From UHGV virus genome UHGV-0120943: DNA of 33,468 nt, one strand, 5' to 3'. A program made the position numbers and the translations under genes. Source of the DNA: a virus. The notes under the pieces were generated by a model, which worked only from the letters and a program-made list of their open reading frames with translations, did not search any database and was not told where the DNA came from. Each line of letters begins with the position of its first letter. Within the stretch, counting starts at the first letter, position 1. This document shows, piece after piece, positions 1-6,503 of the stretch.

Positions 1-127
1 CCATCTCTCCACAGGCAAGAACGGCGTGCCCCGCCGCTAAAATGTTACGAGCGCCGTTTTCATCGGCGTTCGCTATATATCCACAGACCAGGCATCTGAA
101 TTTACTTTGTGACAGGCGATGCACCAT
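1..127 (-). pseudogene. TnpB-like (IS200/IS605 family) C-terminal fragment, truncated; continues past window start
   Basis: Minus-strand translation from 127 down to 1 reads [42 protein letters not shown]..., matching the C-terminal zinc-finger/RuvC-III region of TnpB (CxxCG...NADxNxAxNIL). An in-frame stop lies just upstream at 146-148 and the ATPase gene occupies the space where the N-terminal body would be. Confidence 0.35.
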
Positions 128-211
128 ATGTTGATGCCTTTCATTTTAAAGATTATTATCTAATATTGTTCGATTTAACGCATTGTTCCAAAATAAAATG
201 AGAGTACTTTA

Positions 212-1396
212 ATGATCAGAACAATAGCAATACGTAATTTCAAATCGTTGGTTGATGTCTCGATCAACCTACAAAAATTTAATTGTTTTGTAGGCATGAA
301 CAGTGCGGGTAAAAGTAGCATATTGCAGGCTATCGACTTCATATCGCAACAAATGCATGGATACCTCTACCTCTGGTTAGAAGATCGTGGCTGGGAGTCG
401 AAGGATCTGTACTCTCGAACGAGCAATACTAAAGCGTTTTCTCAACCACTGTTCATAGAAGTTATTTATGATCTGGACGGAAAATGCCTCGTCTGGCAAG
501 GTCATTTCAATCGTAGCCTTATGAGAATGACCCGAGAAAGTATCCATATAGACGGAGAAATGTACCTTGAGGTTATTGATGGGAAGTACAGAACACATGG
601 AAGAAGCTATGACTCAATACCTTTTGAGTATAGTGGTTCAATTTTGGCAACATTAAAAGATAACGTCATTTCTTCTGATGTTATTCATTTTCGTGATGCG
701 CTGAAAAATATCCGCTCTCTCGAGTTACTGTCTCCTCATTTATTGCGAAAGCGCTCCCGTTCGGAAATTAAACCCTCCGGAGTCGGCATTGGTGGAGAAA
801 AACTTTCGGGATACATTGATACGTTAACTCACGATGATAAAAAGATACTTCAACAGATACTCATAAAATTCTACCCACAGATAGTTGGTCTGAGAACGTC
901 GACGTTGAAAGGTGGTTGGAAACGACTGATTATTCAGGAGCGCTTTGTCGATGCAAACGGTGATGAGGCTATTTGCGAGACCGAAGCCGGACAACTCAAT
1001 GACGGATTGTTGCGTATTTTGGCCGTAATTGCTCAGCTAGAGTCCAAAGACGGGTCATTGCTTCTCTTGGATGAGATCGAAAACGGGATTAATCCGCAAG
1101 TTATTGAGCTGCTGGTAGATACTTTGGTTAATGCAAAAACGCAAGTCATTGTGACAACGCATAGCCCAATGATCCTCAATTATCTTGAAGATGATGTTGC
1201 GCGTAAGGGCATCCAGTTTGTTTATAAATCGCCACAAGGGCAAACGCGTGTCCGACCTTTCTTTGAAATGCAGCGTATAAATGAAAAACTTCAGGTCATG
1301 GGGCCTGGTGAAGCATTCATTGATACCGACCTTCAACGGCTGGCGCATGAAAATATAGAGCTTGATGAGATGCGACAAGACCTTATTAAGGATTGA
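212..1396 (+). CDS. ABC/OLD-type ATPase (AAA_15/AAA_21-like), candidate PARIS AriA-like defense ATPase
   Basis: 394-aa ORF. N-terminal IRNFKSL plus Walker A GMNSAGKSS; Walker B/D-loop LLLLDEIENGINPQ; H-loop VIVTTHSPMILN. Stop overlaps the downstream start (TGATG). Confidence 0.8.
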   Translation: MIRTIAIRNFKSLVDVSINLQKFNCFVGMNSAGKSSILQAIDFISQQMHGYLYLWLEDRGWESKDLYSRTSNTKAFSQPLFIEVIYDLDGKCLVWQGHFNRSLMRMTRESIHIDGEMYLEVIDGKYRTHGRSYDSIPFEYSGSILATLKDNVISSDVIHFRDALKNIRSLELLSPHLLRKRSRSEIKPSGVGIGGEKLSGYIDTLTHDDKKILQQILIKFYPQIVGLRTSTLKGGWKRLIIQERFVDANGDEAICETEAGQLNDGLLRILAVIAQLESKDGSLLLLDEIENGINPQVIELLVDTLVNAKTQVIVTTHSPMILNYLEDDVARKGIQFVYKSPQGQTRVRPFFEMQRINEKLQVMGPGEAFIDTDLQRLAHENIELDEMRQDLIKD

Positions 1397-2154
1397 TGAT
1401 GATTGTTGTATTGAGTGGAGAGGGGCCGTCTGATCTCGGCAGTTGTGTAAACGGGCAGGGAGAATGTCTGATAAATGATTTCAACCATGGCCCGATGACA
1501 TATTTTATAGATAAAGAGCTGGAAACATTGCTTGGGTTCTCTCTTCTTGAAATAACGCCAGATCGTTACATTTTTGTCTCAAAATCTGAGCTGATCAGAC
1601 TGACTTCAGCGAAGCGACAAAACCGATCTAGTATGAGTCTGTTAGGGAAGAAAAGGCCTGAAAAAGAGACAGGTTACTTTTATCTCAATGCTTTAATACT
1701 GGGGAATAGAGCTGCTGAGCTTGCAATTGAGCATGAAGATCCCGCAGTGATCGCAGTACTTTTTAGGGACTCTGATGGCACACGTTCTGCGAATTTATCG
1801 CTATGGCAGGATAAAGTAAACTCGATACGTCATGGATTTGATAATTCAGCTATAGGCGAACGCGGTGTTGCCATGGTTCCTAAGCCTAAGTCTGAGAGTT
1901 GGATGCTATGTGTGCTGAGAGATGGTTATGAACACTGCGCAAGGCTGGAAGATTTATCCGGGAATGATAATGTCCCCGACTCAGCTAAAAGGCAGCTGGA
2001 AGAGGCTTTAGGAAGTAATGCTTCGACATCGGCACAGATTCATCACCTCAAGCAAAGTGGCATTGATACGGCAAGACTTGCTGCACAGATGCCGAGTTAT
2101 GACGCGTTCCAACTAAGTTTGGCTGCTGCATTTCGCTTGGCTGCACAGGTTTAG
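1396..2154 (+). CDS. TOPRIM-like (OLD-family/DUF4435-like) partner of the upstream ATPase, candidate AriB-like effector
   Basis: About 252 aa, translationally coupled to the ATPase. N-terminal IVVLSGEGPSD fits the OLD-family TOPRIM hhhxEGxxD motif; a later AVLFRDSDGT supplies a DxD-type acidic motif. Track start 1393 is TTG; ATG at 1396 or 1399 is more likely. Confidence 0.65.
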   Translation: MMIVVLSGEGPSDLGSCVNGQGECLINDFNHGPMTYFIDKELETLLGFSLLEITPDRYIFVSKSELIRLTSAKRQNRSSMSLLGKKRPEKETGYFYLNALILGNRAAELAIEHEDPAVIAVLFRDSDGTRSANLSLWQDKVNSIRHGFDNSAIGERGVAMVPKPKSESWMLCVLRDGYEHCARLEDLSGNDNVPDSAKRQLEEALGSNASTSAQIHHLKQSGIDTARLAAQMPSYDAFQLSLAAAFRLAAQV

Positions 2155-2192
2155 AGTCCGTACATAATTCGGTGCAAATGCCTTTATCTGAC

Positions 2193-2212
2193 GTGACCGC
2201 TCAAGCGGTCAC
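2193..2212. repeat. Perfect inverted repeat GTGACCGC-TCAA-GCGGTCAC, no U-tract
   Basis: 8-bp perfect stem with 4-nt loop, 39 bp after the stop of the TOPRIM-like gene. No T-run on either strand, so not a typical intrinsic terminator. Confidence 0.5.
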
Positions 2213-2539
2213 AGACCTCGATAATAAGCAACTCATAATCATTCGCCAGCCACACCGTATGCTCTCCTGCAAACGAACCATCTATTTTAAGAAAGTCTCT
2301 GGTACTCGAACTTCCGCTTATGGCACAGAGCGGACTGTCATATTAGGTTTGGCTCCACGCCATAGATATGTCAGTTCATATCTTATCTAATACACACAAT
2401 AACTTTCTCATTCTTAGAGAATTATTCTTTTAAGGGTAGGTGTTGACGTTAGAGCAAAAGAATGGTGATTTTTTTGATGTGTATTACGTTGGAACTAATG
2501 GGAATAACTATCTGTTTTCAACGCACAGCTAATTTATCA

Positions 2540-2559
2540 AGGCCCTTTGATCAGGGCCT
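2540..2559 (-). terminator. Hairpin downstream of the minus-strand peptidase/membrane-protein operon
   Basis: AGGCCCT-TTGATC-AGGGCCT, 7-bp stem, 26 bp past the stop at 2585; modest U-run on the minus-strand transcript. Confidence 0.35.
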
Positions 2560-2584
2560 CCGAAAGACTGTTGGACCGAGAGAG

Positions 2585-3190
2585 TTACTTGCGTTTAAAA
2601 AGGTATTTTGTCACGACCAGCACGAGGCCGAATACCTCTGTCAAAGTACCGCCCATGTACAACTGGAGCGTTAAGTCTTTAAATACAAGCCATCCAGCAC
2701 CAGTGGCAAAAAATACACCATTCATTATCAGAAGTTGGCAAGCAAGGATAATCAGGAACCATTTGCCATAGCGTTTTTTTAGATCGATTTCAGCTTCAAA
2801 ATCTTTGTTGTTGAGTTGTTTGCGCTCATGCTCGGTATCAAGTGAATCCACCTGCTTCACAGATGTGAACTCGGTCAAGATTTTGCTCTCAGTACGGGTG
2901 ACTTGTTGAGATGGTGTAGCAGTTGGAATTCTTTTGATTGACGCAGCTACAGCCATTTTGCGAGCTTCGGCAGCTCTTTTTCTGGCTATTCCGTGAATAC
3001 GGGCAGACGGTTTTTTTGGAGCGTGCGAAACCTTTGGCTGAGGTGAAGTTTCGTCGGGAGACTGAACCGGGGTTTCATCGTCCCCCGGCTCAACCTCTTC
3101 TGCTAACTGACGGTGTAGGTTGAGGGAATCCTTCAGTCGGCGTGCAACTTCCTGTTTGAAACGGCTGTTAAAATCGTCATCCGATGGCAT
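2585..3190 (-). CDS. Membrane-anchored protein with charged low-complexity N-terminal region and two C-terminal hydrophobic helices; candidate effector
   Basis: 201-aa ORF starting 9 bp after the ImmA-like stop. C-terminus WFLIILACQLLIMNGVFFATGAGWLVF ... EVFGLVLVVTKYLF is predicted transmembrane. Confidence 0.6.
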   Translation of the reverse strand: MPSDDDFNSRFKQEVARRLKDSLNLHRQLAEEVEPGDDETPVQSPDETSPQPKVSHAPKKPSARIHGIARKRAAEARKMAVAASIKRIPTATPSQQVTRTESKILTEFTSVKQVDSLDTEHERKQLNNKDFEAEIDLKKRYGKWFLIILACQLLIMNGVFFATGAGWLVFKDLTLQLYMGGTLTEVFGLVLVVTKYLFKRK

Positions 3191-3199
3191 TCTAAAGCG

Positions 3200-3688
3200 T
3201 TACCCCAACCTCAAGTTCTTTAAACGATAAGTCATCGCATCGTCAGATACGCCAAAATAATGCGCCATTATATAACTTGGTTGGCCGTCAGCGTGCAGTT
3301 TTCTGACCTCATCAACCGGCATCAGAAGTTCTGCTGCGAACTTGTTCGCAAAAATTTCATCAGGATGCGTTCCGGCGCTTGCGGTTTCGCCACGTAAATC
3401 AACGTACTCATATTCATCACTATGCGATGCTTGCCGGGCGATGTAATGCCCCAACTCATGCCCACATGAAAAACGTTGACGAACTTTGTTGTCATCACTG
3501 TTTAGAAAGATCGCTGGATCTTGATCTTTTTGTTTAATCAGTGCGCCAGAAACTTTCCCAGGAAGATCGGTAATAAAAACATCTAATCCCATGTCGTGAG
3601 CAATTTTCGCTGGATCAACAGGGAAACCACGCCCGCACCAGAACGTGTCCAGCACTCGCCGGGCGTGCTCTCTTGGGTTGGTAGCCAT
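3200..3688 (-). CDS. ImmA/IrrE-family zinc metallopeptidase (HEXXH)
   Basis: 162-aa ORF with HELGHY zinc-binding motif in the FSCGHELGHYIARQ context typical of ImmA/IrrE (COG2856/DUF955). GGAGGAG Shine-Dalgarno upstream of the ATG. Confidence 0.8.
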   Translation of the reverse strand: MATNPREHARRVLDTFWCGRGFPVDPAKIAHDMGLDVFITDLPGKVSGALIKQKDQDPAIFLNSDDNKVRQRFSCGHELGHYIARQASHSDEYEYVDLRGETASAGTHPDEIFANKFAAELLMPVDEVRKLHADGQPSYIMAHYFGVSDDAMTYRLKNLRLG

Positions 3689-4164
3689 AGCTCCTCCAGT
3701 TACTGCATTACGATTGTTGGTCGAAATATAGACAACATGTTCCGTACCACATTCCTGTAAAAGTGCAAATTCTGCACTTCTGGTACGATATTAACTGTTA
3801 GTAGTAAAGTCTTCCAGATAAATCACTTTAAAATCGTGTGAATTGCTTGCTTTTTACGCTGCATTGTGGATGGCTCAATGTTTCCAGTAAAAACATACAT
3901 GATAATCATGAGATTAGTGGTTTTTTAGCATGATCTTAAGCCTGGTGCAGAAAATATCCCTTTAACGTATACCGCATTTTATGTCACACGCCAGAAGCCA
4001 CACCCCAAGCGGCCTGATAAGAAAGCATCTACTGTTTGAAGGATTTTGAAGCTTTTTCCCGTGACAAGATCCAGTTAACTGTTAGAATTCTTCGAGCCGA
4101 ATCGGTGGTTTTAGCCCATTCGTTAAAAATAAAAAGCATAAATATCATAGAGTAAGTTCAAAAC

Positions 4165-4932
4165 ATGCAGGCTCAACCTAAGACTAAACACCAAGAATTG
4201 GTCGATAAGCTATCATTCTACATAGACACCAAAACGCCTATAGAAGCTTTTGTGGCAGCAGATATTCAGCATGAGATTGGTTCTTTACCACCAGAATCCC
4301 GTTCTTATGTTACTGCTTTGCTTAAGGTTGCACTTAAAGATCATGATGCCGCTGTTGAGTGGTTCAAAGACGCCATGATGACTTCTGGTGATAATTCGGC
4401 GATAGTTGCTGGTAACTATGTGGGCTACCTGAGCTGCTCTGGTCATAATCTTTTCCATAGAATGGAAGTGTTCCGCCTGGTTGACGTATTCTGTACGCAA
4501 CGGATCAGAAAAATGGCGCGGAATGCTGCTTATTGCATCGGTAACGATAGGCTTGTTAAAAAGTATACCGTTATGATGAAAGCCTTACTTGATGGCGAAG
4601 AGCGAGATAGTATTGAACGTGAGGGCGCACAAATGGCAGAAGCTATTGTAAAATTCAAAGAGGCCACAGAGCTAACCTCATCTGAAATCGAGCAATTATG
4701 TGATGCTGCTGAACAGATTGCTAACAACCACGGCGTAAATTGTATCGGCATCGAATACTTCCTCAGTGGCGGATATGACAATGCAATTATCCTTTTCGCT
4801 GAAACTGAAGATTCCGATACACTTACGACGATGAATCTTGAACTAGTTGATCTTCTTGCTCATGATACTTACATTGACCGGCCTTTTACTTCGTGGTTTA
4901 AAAGCGCTGAAATGAAAGGAGCTGAACTATGA
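4165..4932 (+). CDS. Hypothetical protein, first gene of an overlapping two-gene module
   Basis: 255-aa ORF in the low-GC island; stop overlaps the start of the next ORF (ATGA). No family recognised. Confidence 0.6.
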   Translation: MQAQPKTKHQELVDKLSFYIDTKTPIEAFVAADIQHEIGSLPPESRSYVTALLKVALKDHDAAVEWFKDAMMTSGDNSAIVAGNYVGYLSCSGHNLFHRMEVFRLVDVFCTQRIRKMARNAAYCIGNDRLVKKYTVMMKALLDGEERDSIEREGAQMAEAIVKFKEATELTSSEIEQLCDAAEQIANNHGVNCIGIEYFLSGGYDNAIILFAETEDSDTLTTMNLELVDLLAHDTYIDRPFTSWFKSAEMKGAEL

Positions 4933-5327
4933 GCGTAACTGGTCAGAACTTCATTGAGTTTGCAGATAAATGCATCGCATTTGGAGATGAAATAGGATTC
5001 AGAAACGCGGTGGGACGTTCATACTATGGCGTGTTTCATGAAATCTGCAGCAAGTTAGAGCACTGCTACGTACTGACATCTCATGAAGGTGTGCGTAAGT
5101 ATTTAATGAGTGAAGCTCAGTGTAAGAAAGAGCCTTACGATAAAACAGCCCTGAGAAAGATTGGTGTCCTTTTACATCATCTGCATGTTCAAAGGAAATG
5201 GGCTGATTACACACTTGAGCGTGACTTGACCAAGGCTGACGCCGAATCTGCGATGAAATCCGCAAAGGAAGCCATGAAGCAAATCAAGACAATGCATGAG
5301 ACGGTTTATCCGCCTTCCGCTGCATAA
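4929..5327 (+). CDS. Hypothetical protein with possible HEPN-like R-x6-H motif
   Basis: 132-aa ORF coupled to the upstream gene. R30-SYYGVF-H37 matches the Rx4-6H pattern of HEPN RNases, but its N-terminal position is atypical; tentative. Confidence 0.55.
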   Translation: MSVTGQNFIEFADKCIAFGDEIGFRNAVGRSYYGVFHEICSKLEHCYVLTSHEGVRKYLMSEAQCKKEPYDKTALRKIGVLLHHLHVQRKWADYTLERDLTKADAESAMKSAKEAMKQIKTMHETVYPPSAA

Positions 5328-5343
5328 GTAACATAGTCCTTAG

Positions 5344-5363
5344 CCCCACCCTGGTGGGGTTTT
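5344..5363 (+). terminator. Rho-independent terminator
   Basis: CCCCAC-CCTG-GTGGGG followed by TTTT, 17 bp after the stop at 5327. Confidence 0.6.
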
Positions 5364-5610
5364 ACGCCTGGCTGCTGAGGCAGGTGTGTTTAAACAAATC
5401 CCCGCGAGATGCAGTGGGTCAGTTCTTTTTCCCTTTTCGTCGAGCGCTTCTTTTACCCACTCTTCAAGTTTCATTTTGCGAGCTCTGGCGCTGTTGTTCC
5501 ATACTGCTTTTGAGAGCCGTTACAGGAACGCCTTTTTCTCTCCAGTCATTATCTTTCCCTGGAGTACTGATAAAGACGACTCCATCAACAAACATTTTAT
5601 GATGTGATGT

Positions 5611-5638
5611 ACAAAAAGAAAAATCCCGCTATGCGGGG
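5611..5638 (-). terminator. Rho-independent terminator for minus-strand transcription
   Basis: Hairpin CCCGC-TAT-GCGGG; on the minus strand it is followed by UUUUUCUUUUU. Confidence 0.45.
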
Positions 5639-5819
5639 TTAACCTAATTTTTTTTTCGCTTCTTACTTCTTATCCCACATTCCATGCATTCTTTCTATCT
5701 CAGCATCAGTTAAATCATCCAGCCCAACAATTTCAGAGCCGTGACGATAAACGAAAACGCACACACTCTCCAACGTTAGTCAAAAATAGTCACGCGCAGC
5801 GCAGCACCCGCGCTCACTC

Positions 5820-5850
5820 GATTATTTATAATACCTATTGATTATTTATA
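5820..5850 (+). promoter_or_regulatory. Two 11-bp direct repeats (GATTATTTATA) overlapping a consensus -10 (TATAAT); candidate operator/promoter
   Basis: Repeats at 5820-5830 and 5840-5850, 20 bp centre to centre; TATAAT at 5827-5832; no good -35. Confidence 0.35.
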
Positions 5851-5867
5851 TATCATATGGGGATATT

Positions 5868-6503
5868 ATGAATGGTTTTTACGACGACTGGCCTGAAACG
5901 TTCGTCACCCGACTGGACATGTTGCGAGCGCTGGATAACAGAGGGGCAACCCGGAGACTCTACACAAAACGTACAGGGGCGATTTACAACGCGCTGGCTG
6001 ACGAGGTTCGTGATGCCGTGGCTGGATTCAATACCAGTGAACTCGACTTAGGACCACTCTACCGGTATTACAAACGTGGAGGAGAGGGCGAAGTGCTGGC
6101 AGACACACTGATCGCACTGGCACCGCCTGTGTGCAGGCGCGTAATGATTTCCCCTGACGTATATACAATACCGTACCTGTTTTTTGCGCTGTTGATAGCG
6201 CGAGGAGAGGACGACGATGCACGTGATTTTTTCAATATGATGATGCGGCCGCTAATCGTGGCGTACCGGTTCAAACAACTGGCGCGTTACCTGGGAACAA
6301 AGGGCGGAGGGAGGCCACAGCACAGGCTTAAAGACGAGGCATTACAGATTGCAGAGGTTTTTTTCACAAATAACCCCCACGCACGGGTTAGTGCGGCGGT
6401 GGCACGTATTAACGAAATTCTCGTAAAAAAATATGCGGACGTTCCGGCGGAATCAACAATCAGAAAATGGTTAACCCCTGTTTATGGAAATGAAAAAAAA
6501 TAA
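5868..6503 (+). CDS. Hypothetical prophage protein
   Basis: Track ORF starts at TTG 5838; ATG at 5868 has a GGGGA Shine-Dalgarno 6 nt upstream. No family recognised. Confidence 0.6.
   Translation: MNGFYDDWPETFVTRLDMLRALDNRGATRRLYTKRTGAIYNALADEVRDAVAGFNTSELDLGPLYRYYKRGGEGEVLADTLIALAPPVCRRVMISPDVYTIPYLFFALLIARGEDDDARDFFNMMMRPLIVAYRFKQLARYLGTKGGGRPQHRLKDEALQIAEVFFTNNPHARVSAAVARINEILVKKYADVPAESTIRKWLTPVYGNEKK

Follow-up and report, generated by a model that had tools for sequence, protein, structure and literature searches.

A stretch of viral DNA, UHGV virus genome UHGV-0120943 (33,468 nucleotides; hereafter, the window, meaning the whole stretch), is a lambdoid Escherichia coli prophage that carries a two-gene cassette as cargo in a variable slot between its replication genes and the Q antiterminator. 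Gene A (212..1396, plus strand) encodes a 394-aa ATP-binding cassette (ABC) ATPase; gene B (1396..2154, plus strand) encodes a 252-aa TOPRIM-like protein, a putative metal-dependent nuclease with a helical domain at its C-terminus. By sequence, the pair is a member of PDC-M25, a candidate family of the PADLOC collection: full-length matches of both proteins, gene order, gene sizes and the coupling of the two genes all fit. It is a horizontally mobile PDC-M25 cassette, here lodged in a prophage, and on balance it is probably a defense module in which the ATPase would control a TOPRIM-like nuclease.

PDC-M25 was catalogued as cassette CAS_00102 (FAM_00005>>FAM_00372, count 142), one of 145 experimentally untested “phage defence candidates” (PDC) (Payne et al., 2024, preprint). 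The family was defined through its embedding in BREX, DISARM or type I restriction-modification (RM) loci, and its ATPase family, FAM_00005, is common to PDC-M25, HEC-01, PDC-M07, PDC-M38 and PDC-M47 (Payne et al., 2024). No published assignment of a fold or function to the partner family was found. An earlier reading of the window, made from the letters alone (the original prediction), had called the pair PARIS-like, with the hedge that it may be a divergent or undescribed variant rather than canonical PARIS. This hedge was apt, except that the pair is already catalogued and so not undescribed.

How good is the match to PDC-M25? Gene A aligns to the PDC-M25A model along residues 1-387 of 394 (model positions 1-375 of 380; E 3.3e-157, 521.5 bits), followed among PADLOC families by HEC-01A (9.4e-32), PDC-M07A (7e-28), AriA (7e-25, a partial match), Old (7e-20) and GajA (1e-18). 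In Pfam, it matches AAA_21 (1.7e-23) and AAA_15 (2.3e-23) and so falls into the AAA_15/AAA_21 group that holds OLD, AriA and HEC-01A. An ABC/OLD-type ATPase is what the original prediction had proposed, and the motifs of the protein lie on the plus strand: Walker A (GMNSAGKSS, nt 293-319, aa 28-36), a signature-like LNDGLLR (nt 995-1015, aa 262-268), Walker B with the D-loop (LLLLDEIE, nt 1058-1081, aa 283-290) and the H-loop (TTHSP, nt 1154-1168, aa 315-319). A sequence search of solved structures returns a match confined to the first 46 residues of Ts OLD, and a single-sequence AlphaFold model of gene A has a pLDDT score (predicted local distance difference test) of 36.3, too low for comparison with the AriA, GajA and OLD ATPases. 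Gene B matches PDC-M25B nearly end to end (residues 3-249 on model positions 1-243 of 248; 5.3e-96, 319.2 bits), and all five PDC-M25B sub-models detect it, while Pfam, NCBIfam and PHROGs hold no match. A database search with B finds 375 homologs, none with a precomputed Pfam domain among the matches listed; a profile search of 1.84 billion representatives finds 574 clusters at 50% identity, nearly all of them stand-alone proteins of 230-260 aa.

The two genes are translationally coupled, as originally proposed. At the junction (1388..1399, plus strand), a Shine-Dalgarno-like AAGGAT (1388-1393) precedes the stop codon of A (TGA, 1394-1396), and ATG codons begin at 1396 and 1399. The open reading frame lister places the start of B at a TTG at 1393; RefSeq (strain GF131) and the N-termini of homologs (MIVVLSGEG) favor the ATG at 1396 or 1399. 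The stop codon of A therefore overlaps or abuts the start of B, and the two genes of homologous loci (L082-L086) likewise overlap by 1 or 4 nt.

Linkage extends well beyond this prophage. A scan of one genome per species (~100,000 genomes) finds a B relative in 144, which span Gamma-, Beta-, Delta- and Epsilonproteobacteria, Verrucomicrobiota, Planctomycetota, Cyanobacteria and one genome of the candidate phyla radiation. The locus counts that follow refer to 80 species genomes retrieved from these 144. The original prediction had asked whether the two genes co-occur in other genomes: of the 80 loci, 79 have a co-oriented homolog of A (37-54% identity) immediately upstream of B, and in the exception (L048, 9840-10654) a 30-aa C-terminal remnant of A precedes an intact-looking B. 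Closely related copies form a bare two-gene insert between housekeeping operons, sit beside a CP4-57-like island, or have an ATPase gene disrupted by an insertion sequence (IS); among decayed copies is one from Janthinobacterium (L087:5161-7906), with an ATPase gene broken up by IS elements. No second, distant B-like gene was found in 1.35 Mb of fetched loci. Plasmid pISO32_1 of Hydrogenimonas (L090:2393-4942) has a divergent M25 pair, with B at 24% identity, and directly behind it, in the same orientation, a gene for an HNH_2 endonuclease; the arrangement may be a three-gene variant.

The surroundings of the pair often recall those of defense genes. In 25 of the 80 loci it lies inside a BREX-1 operon, mostly between pglX and pglZ; on two plasmids it sits between brxC and pglX, and in one locus (L056) between hsdM-like and hsdR-like genes. 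Native BREX-embedded copies include those of Moellerella pW1-a and Oceanisphaera pA. In six loci (L024, L035, L021, L023, L026, L055) the pglX-pglZ gap also holds paralogous pairs, an ATPase with a DUF4276 partner (HEC-01) and an ATPase with a DUF3226 partner (PDC-M38); at L024:5001-10690 three pairs follow one another in tandem on one strand, and a further array lies at L035:6983-14007. These arrays suggest that TOPRIM-like partners have been exchanged on a common ATPase scaffold; their DUF3226 partners show weak OLD-like_TOPRIM matches. On plasmid pA of Oceanisphaera sp. (L092:3833-5747 and L093:76-1955), one BREX-1 operon carries two module types: an M25 pair sits between brxC and pglX, and an AriAB-like pair of ATPase and DUF4435 protein occupies the pglX-pglZ gap. 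It is from this embedding in BREX-1 and hsd loci, the tandem arrays with HEC-01 and PDC-M38, the common ATPase family, the variable cargo slot and the intactness of the genes that we infer a role in defense.

How might such a module work? Translational coupling would supply A and B in a fixed ratio, and the two would form a complex in which the ATPase acts as sensor and gatekeeper. An infection cue would release or activate B, which would then cleave nucleic acid (host tRNA, other RNA, or DNA) through a two-metal acidic site composed of E9, D13, D125xD127 and S166/E167; cleavage would stop phage replication, probably at a cost to the infected cell.

If this is the general scheme, why does the pair return to the same place in BREX operons? 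The recurrent position, together with the precedent of Ocr sensing by PARIS, lends appeal to a variant in which M25 monitors the integrity of BREX or type I RM, or senses phage inhibitors of them, and fires its nuclease only once this first defense has been knocked out; carried by the prophage, the back-up would be portable. The BREX-1 insertions between pglX and pglZ, the two plasmids with the brxC-pglX position and the hsd locus all fit this variant, as does the ability of PARIS, a comparable split ATPase/TOPRIM pair, to sense the BREX and type I RM inhibitor Ocr. However, 55 of the 80 loci have no BREX genes within 10 kb; close homologs are found between housekeeping genes or on BREX-free islands, the neighborhood of the cassette in the window has neither BREX nor RM genes, and the embedding may reflect a merely permissive insertion site, given that many unrelated systems are embedded in the same way (Payne et al., 2024). 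A guard function for M25 is therefore conceivable and, in our view, rather unlikely. We hold in the same modest regard the broader proposal, drawn by analogy, that PDC-M25 may be a second, independently evolved anti-anti-restriction guard, a counterpart of PARIS built on a different TOPRIM-like effector family. Were it correct, the pglX-pglZ position would reflect functional coupling, with the ATPase sensing inhibitors of BREX/RM, or the failure of BREX, and unleashing a two-metal nuclease that has its own substrate; a temperate phage would supply its E. coli host with a back-up layer; and the HEC-01/PDC-M38/PDC-M25 arrays would be a set of diversified sensors, built on one ATPase scaffold and fitted with different effectors.

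Both the ATPase-controlled module that we favor and its guard variant need B to be a nuclease. Is it a TOPRIM-type enzyme? The EGxxD and DxD motifs that were originally seen in the second protein are both there, as SGEGPSD (nt 1414-1434, aa 7-13) and FRDSDG (nt 1762-1779, aa 123-128), both on the plus strand. The candidate catalytic residues are E9 (nt 1420-1422), D13 (1432-1434), D125/D127 (1768-1776) and S166/E167 (1891-1896), with W169 nearby. Across 263 family members, D125, E167 and W169 are invariant (263/263 each), D127 is found in 262 of 262 and S166 in 249 of 263; E9 and D13, counted over 253 ungapped sequences, are each kept in 252. The family alignment also shows three conserved lysines, K140, K165 and K198 (the last in 260 of 263). 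Judged by the conservation of the acidic residues and by the ratio of nonsynonymous to synonymous substitution rates (dN/dS) of 0.12-0.16 in both genes, these motifs are not due to chance.

For B, AlphaFold yields a confident model from an alignment of 57 sequences (pLDDT 89.1; predicted template modeling score 0.89). Its N-terminal half comprises strand 3-7, the Glu loop, a hairpin insert (15-31), helix 33-46 and strand 58-61; helices 63-76 and 90-112, strand 118-123, the DxD motif and helix 135-149 follow, and strand 157-160 and helix 166-174 lead into the helical C-terminal domain. E9 follows strand 1 (3-7) and D125/D127 follow strand 3 (118-123), so that in the model the order of elements appears to be that of TOPRIM, with Glu after strand 1 and DxD after strand 3. 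Burkholderia OLD coordinates two metals: E400, D455 and D457 bind metal A, E404, T506 and E508 bind metal B, and a further Lys is catalytic (PMC6755086). By position, E9, D13, D125, D127 and E167 of B would correspond to E400, E404, D455, D457 and T506/E508 of the Burkholderia enzyme. Two cysteine pairs, C172/C181 (nt 1909..1938; near-universal, in 252 and 248 of 263 sequences) and C17/C24 (nt 1444..1467, in the hairpin insert; in ~65% of members and absent from a BREX-embedded plasmid clade), may form a structural metal site or a disulfide.

Comparisons with known folds and families point the same way from a distance. Foldseek returns no significant match of the B model in PDB or BFVD, and a profile of the B family finds no match at E<=10 among the sequences of solved structures. 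Lumazine synthase and TOPRIM have the same four-strand 2-1-3-4 three-layer topology in SCOP, and because of this likeness the top Foldseek matches are compatible with TOPRIM and not diagnostic of it. The commonest sub-threshold Pfam match in the B family is DUF4276 (PF14103), found in 11 of 57 members (best E 0.0023); the matches shown individually (15.7 and 13.1 bits, against a gathering threshold of 30.2 bits) are collinear and span the part from DxD to the C-terminus. Three HEC-01B models match 25, 19 and 11 of the 57 members (best E 1.2e-06), and B of the window itself matches neither DUF4276 nor any HEC-01B model. Published work places both HEC-01B and DUF4276 in TOPRIM.

In profile-profile comparison by hhalign with deepened profiles, M25B and DUF4276 align over 188 columns (E 0.0016, 15.9% probability), pairing FRDsDG with LTDVY, KSEAWLLC with DFEAWLLP and MPSFxxF with CPElKaF. 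A control comparison between DUF4276 and DUF3226, both accepted as TOPRIM-type, is weaker (E 0.0067), and M25B against DUF3226 gives no signal (E 0.3); the deeper profiles replace an earlier comparison with four-sequence DUF3226 and DUF4276 profiles, which was low-powered (13% probability for the control). PH0156 (2p62) is presumably a DUF3226 protein; a phmmer search started from a bacterial DUF3226 protein found nothing, and a literature search found no paper that mentions DUF3226. From these alignments, B would be a distant relative of DUF4276 and not a member, as it stays below the Pfam threshold, with DUF4276/HEC-01B as the nearest named family.

Taken together, moderately supportive structural searches and profile evidence that is weak but consistent suggest a TOPRIM affiliation, and gene B quite likely belongs to this superfamily. 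The TOPRIM signature originally proposed thus holds as regards the placement of Glu and DxD in a confident model and the conserved acids, and does not extend to a significant Foldseek match. B could instead be an alpha/beta protein with a different catalytic activity or none, such as an adaptor that binds a nucleotide or cofactor and has a flavodoxin/lumazine-synthase-like fold, with the ATPase or a host factor as the effector, as the missing Foldseek, Pfam and NCBIfam matches might be taken to imply. This is improbable: five universally conserved acids fall exactly where strands 1, 3 and 4 end, and their arrangement, EGxxD / DxDG / SE, is that of two-metal TOPRIM nucleases; the only named families that match, HEC-01B and DUF4276, are TOPRIM-type; the paralogous modules in the arrays carry DUF3226 and DUF4276 partners, the former with their OLD-like_TOPRIM matches; and a lumazine synthase-like topology, being that of TOPRIM, is no contradiction.

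The proposed ATPase/nuclease module travels as a compact unit. Window positions 121..2341 (2,221 bp, with both genes, the region upstream of A and a 3' flank of ~190 bp) are 96.5% identical in nucleotide sequence to loci L082, L083 and L085 from other Enterobacterales, whose flanks are unrelated, and the limits at 121 and 2341 are sharp; a search of the cassette ends for terminal repeats gave matches at chance level only. Against a 96.5%-identical cassette elsewhere, dN/dS is 0.115 for A and 0.158 for B: both genes are intact and under purifying selection. E. coli GF131 is 99.8% identical to window positions 1-3928; there, the prophage adjoins tRNA-Leu downstream of uvrC/pgsA, and the pair is flanked by replication genes (RepO, a DnaB-type helicase, ORF6N) on one side and Q, lysis and terminase genes on the other. 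The adjoining segment, 2313-3928, is near-ubiquitous (~4,900 of 5,426 complete E. coli genomes), and many E. coli prophages match the window only from ~2313 onward. In sister prophages the slot is filled differently, with genes for a methyltransferase and a SMEK-domain protein in one and with a gene of the LprI family in another. Cassette copies in unrelated flanks and a variable slot are what one expects of horizontally acquired cargo, as the pair was first described; the low G+C content mentioned with it is real (43.0% in the cassette) and common to the whole variable region (43.6% over 1-6000, against 49.5% in the remaining window) rather than specific to the pair. In a prophage of Escherichia whittamii Sa2BVA5 (L002:11267-14768), the same cassette is present at 99% identity, with an extra ~3.5 kb, relative to the window, inserted between it and the segment on the ImmA side.

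Could the cassette merely serve itself, as a toxin-antitoxin-like addiction module that stabilizes its mobile elements and has no part in phage defense? The movement of a compact unit between prophage, plasmids and chromosomal islands would suit such a role, the Pfam description of AAA_21 reads “putative AbiEii toxin, Type IV TA system” (TA, toxin-antitoxin), and HEC-01 gave no phage protection when tested. Yet recurrent BREX embedding and tandem clustering with defense candidates are typical of immune genes, several chromosomal copies lie between housekeeping genes with no mobile element to stabilize, and ATPase/TOPRIM pairs of known function (PARIS, Gabija, OLD) are defense systems; addiction is a very unlikely explanation.

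That the pair is PARIS itself, in which an AriA hexamer holds AriB, a DUF4435 TOPRIM protein, and releases it on Ocr-like anti-restriction proteins to cleave tRNA-Lys, is hardly credible: the layout of a split ABC ATPase with a TOPRIM-like partner is the same, gene A matches two AriA models (7.4e-25 and 1e-22) and carriage on a mobile element recalls PARIS on P4 satellites, but AriB is defined by DUF4435 (PMC11464382), and neither B of the window nor any of 57 family members matches DUF4435/AriB (Pfam and PADLOC, E<=10); hhalign of M25B against DUF4435 profiles of 28 and 58 sequences gives 0.07% and 0.3% probability (E 0.21 for the latter); Glu and DxD are ~116 residues apart in M25B and ~49 in DUF4435; the AriA matches are partial, in two stretches, and surpassed by PDC-M25A (by over 130 orders of magnitude), HEC-01A and PDC-M07A; and the AriAB-like and M25 pairs are separate modules in the one Oceanisphaera BREX locus. 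Canonical PARIS membership is ruled out by the DUF4435 test. What stands of the PARIS-like description is a horizontally acquired, split OLD-type ATPase with a TOPRIM-like partner; the family is PDC-M25, a sister of HEC-01.

Several observations weigh against a defense nuclease. HEC-01, the closest relative that has been tested, protected E. coli against none of the phages tried in one assay; PDC-M25 is mentioned by name nowhere in the literature that was found, and no experiment on it exists. In the B model, an invariant Gly directly after strand 2 (58-61) was not identified, the nearest being G84 in a low-confidence loop, and the acidic cluster is predicted from chain positions. Carriage by a phage is also atypical of the family: the cassette occurs in only 1 of 5,426 complete E. 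coli genomes, and no B relatives were found in 50,697 sequenced phage genomes. Going by these searches, the window copy appears to be the first prophage-borne PDC-M25 member found.

Other features of the region frame the cassette. On the minus strand, 1..121 encodes the C-terminal remnant of a TnpB/Cas12f-like protein (zinc ribbon and RuvC-III motif), which runs off the start of the window without its N-terminus. The TnpB-like fragment noticed beside the pair at the outset is therefore real: Pfam Cas12f1-like_TNB matches at E 6.1e-06 (26.7 bits, cutoff 26.3 bits), and RefSeq labels the fragment a “zinc ribbon domain” pseudogene that lacks its N-terminus. It lies outside the two-gene system and marks the left junction of the cassette; as the mobilizer of the cassette it was rejected, being truncated exactly at the junction and absent from the other cassette copies. 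Upstream of gene A, a sigma-70-like promoter candidate (131..159, plus strand; TTGATG, a 17-nt spacer, TATTAT) is weakly indicated, as the region holds four promoter-like sites against 5.1 +/- 2.5 in shuffled sequence, that is, no excess. A terminator scan called none after gene B. Within the cassette, 39 nt past the stop codon of B, lies a perfect 8-bp hairpin (2193..2212, plus strand; GTGACCGC-TCAA-GCGGTCAC), which has no T tract and is thus not a canonical intrinsic terminator.

Farther along the window, 3200..3688 (minus strand) holds an ImmA/IrrE-type metallopeptidase gene (Peptidase_M78 7.5e-18; PADLOC capP 2.8e-25; RmrA ~6e-12); directly downstream of it, 2585..3190 (minus strand) encodes a 201-aa protein with a hydrophobic C-terminus and no family match. 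Two genes of 255 aa and 132 aa, overlapping by 4 nt, occupy 4165..5327 (plus strand) in the low-GC variable region; neither Pfam nor PADLOC matches them, and the coupled pair could be another cargo module. In every Enterobacterales locus with a 96%-identical copy of the cassette, a gene for a 1,265-1,272-aa “Upx-like” (PF28173) protein lies convergent to it (L082:9332-13150, L083:9330-13148, L085:4999-8796); the window has no such gene.

Why does this cassette matter? Pairs of ABC ATPase and TOPRIM (OLD, Gabija, PARIS) are a major theme of bacterial immunity, and many sister families are computational candidates only. To a specialist, the architecture of the pair is unsurprising; what stands out is an effector family without a domain assignment or structure and its strong association with BREX. 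For the B family (~570 clusters at 50% identity), neither a Pfam domain nor a close relative among solved or predicted structures was found, yet it carries a complete two-metal acidic constellation. The cassette is compact (2.2 kb), intact, under purifying selection and native to E. coli, and is therefore directly testable in its natural host background. If B proves to be a nuclease and its trigger and substrate are found, it would open a new effector branch among TOPRIM-based defense systems, explain frequent insertion into BREX and show whether embedded modules back BREX up; if it is inactive, as HEC-01 was in its one assay, it would caution against equating embedding with function.

How does the pair compare with known systems? 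Other members of PDC-M25 have the same gene order, sizes and coupling; unlike the BREX-embedded ones, the window copy is lambdoid prophage cargo without BREX or RM neighbors. HEC-01 has the common ATPase family FAM_00005 and the same two-gene plan of an ATPase and a small TOPRIM/DUF4276-type partner, and the two kinds of pair are neighbors within one BREX gap (L024, L035, L021, L026); M25B differs in being ~50 residues longer, in a hairpin insert of ~20 residues that follows its Glu loop, and in the long helices that separate strand 2 from strand 3. In PDC-M38, an ATPase is joined by a DUF3226 partner, and DUF3226, with no signal against M25B, is closer to DUF4435 by profile (69% probability). 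In OLD classes 1-3 (P2 Old, GajA, the retron Eco8 effector), TOPRIM is fused to the ATPase in a single polypeptide, whereas the M25 genes are separate here and in 79 of the 80 loci, and B of the window has no OLD-like_TOPRIM Pfam match. PARIS (class 4 OLD-like) resembles M25 in its adjacent, co-oriented genes, its split ABC ATPase and TOPRIM-like effector and its carriage on mobile elements; its AriB is a DUF4435 TOPRIM protein, and M25B has no detectable relationship to DUF4435. By analogy, PARIS is a plausible model for M25, as a system in which a sensor controls the release of a nuclease.

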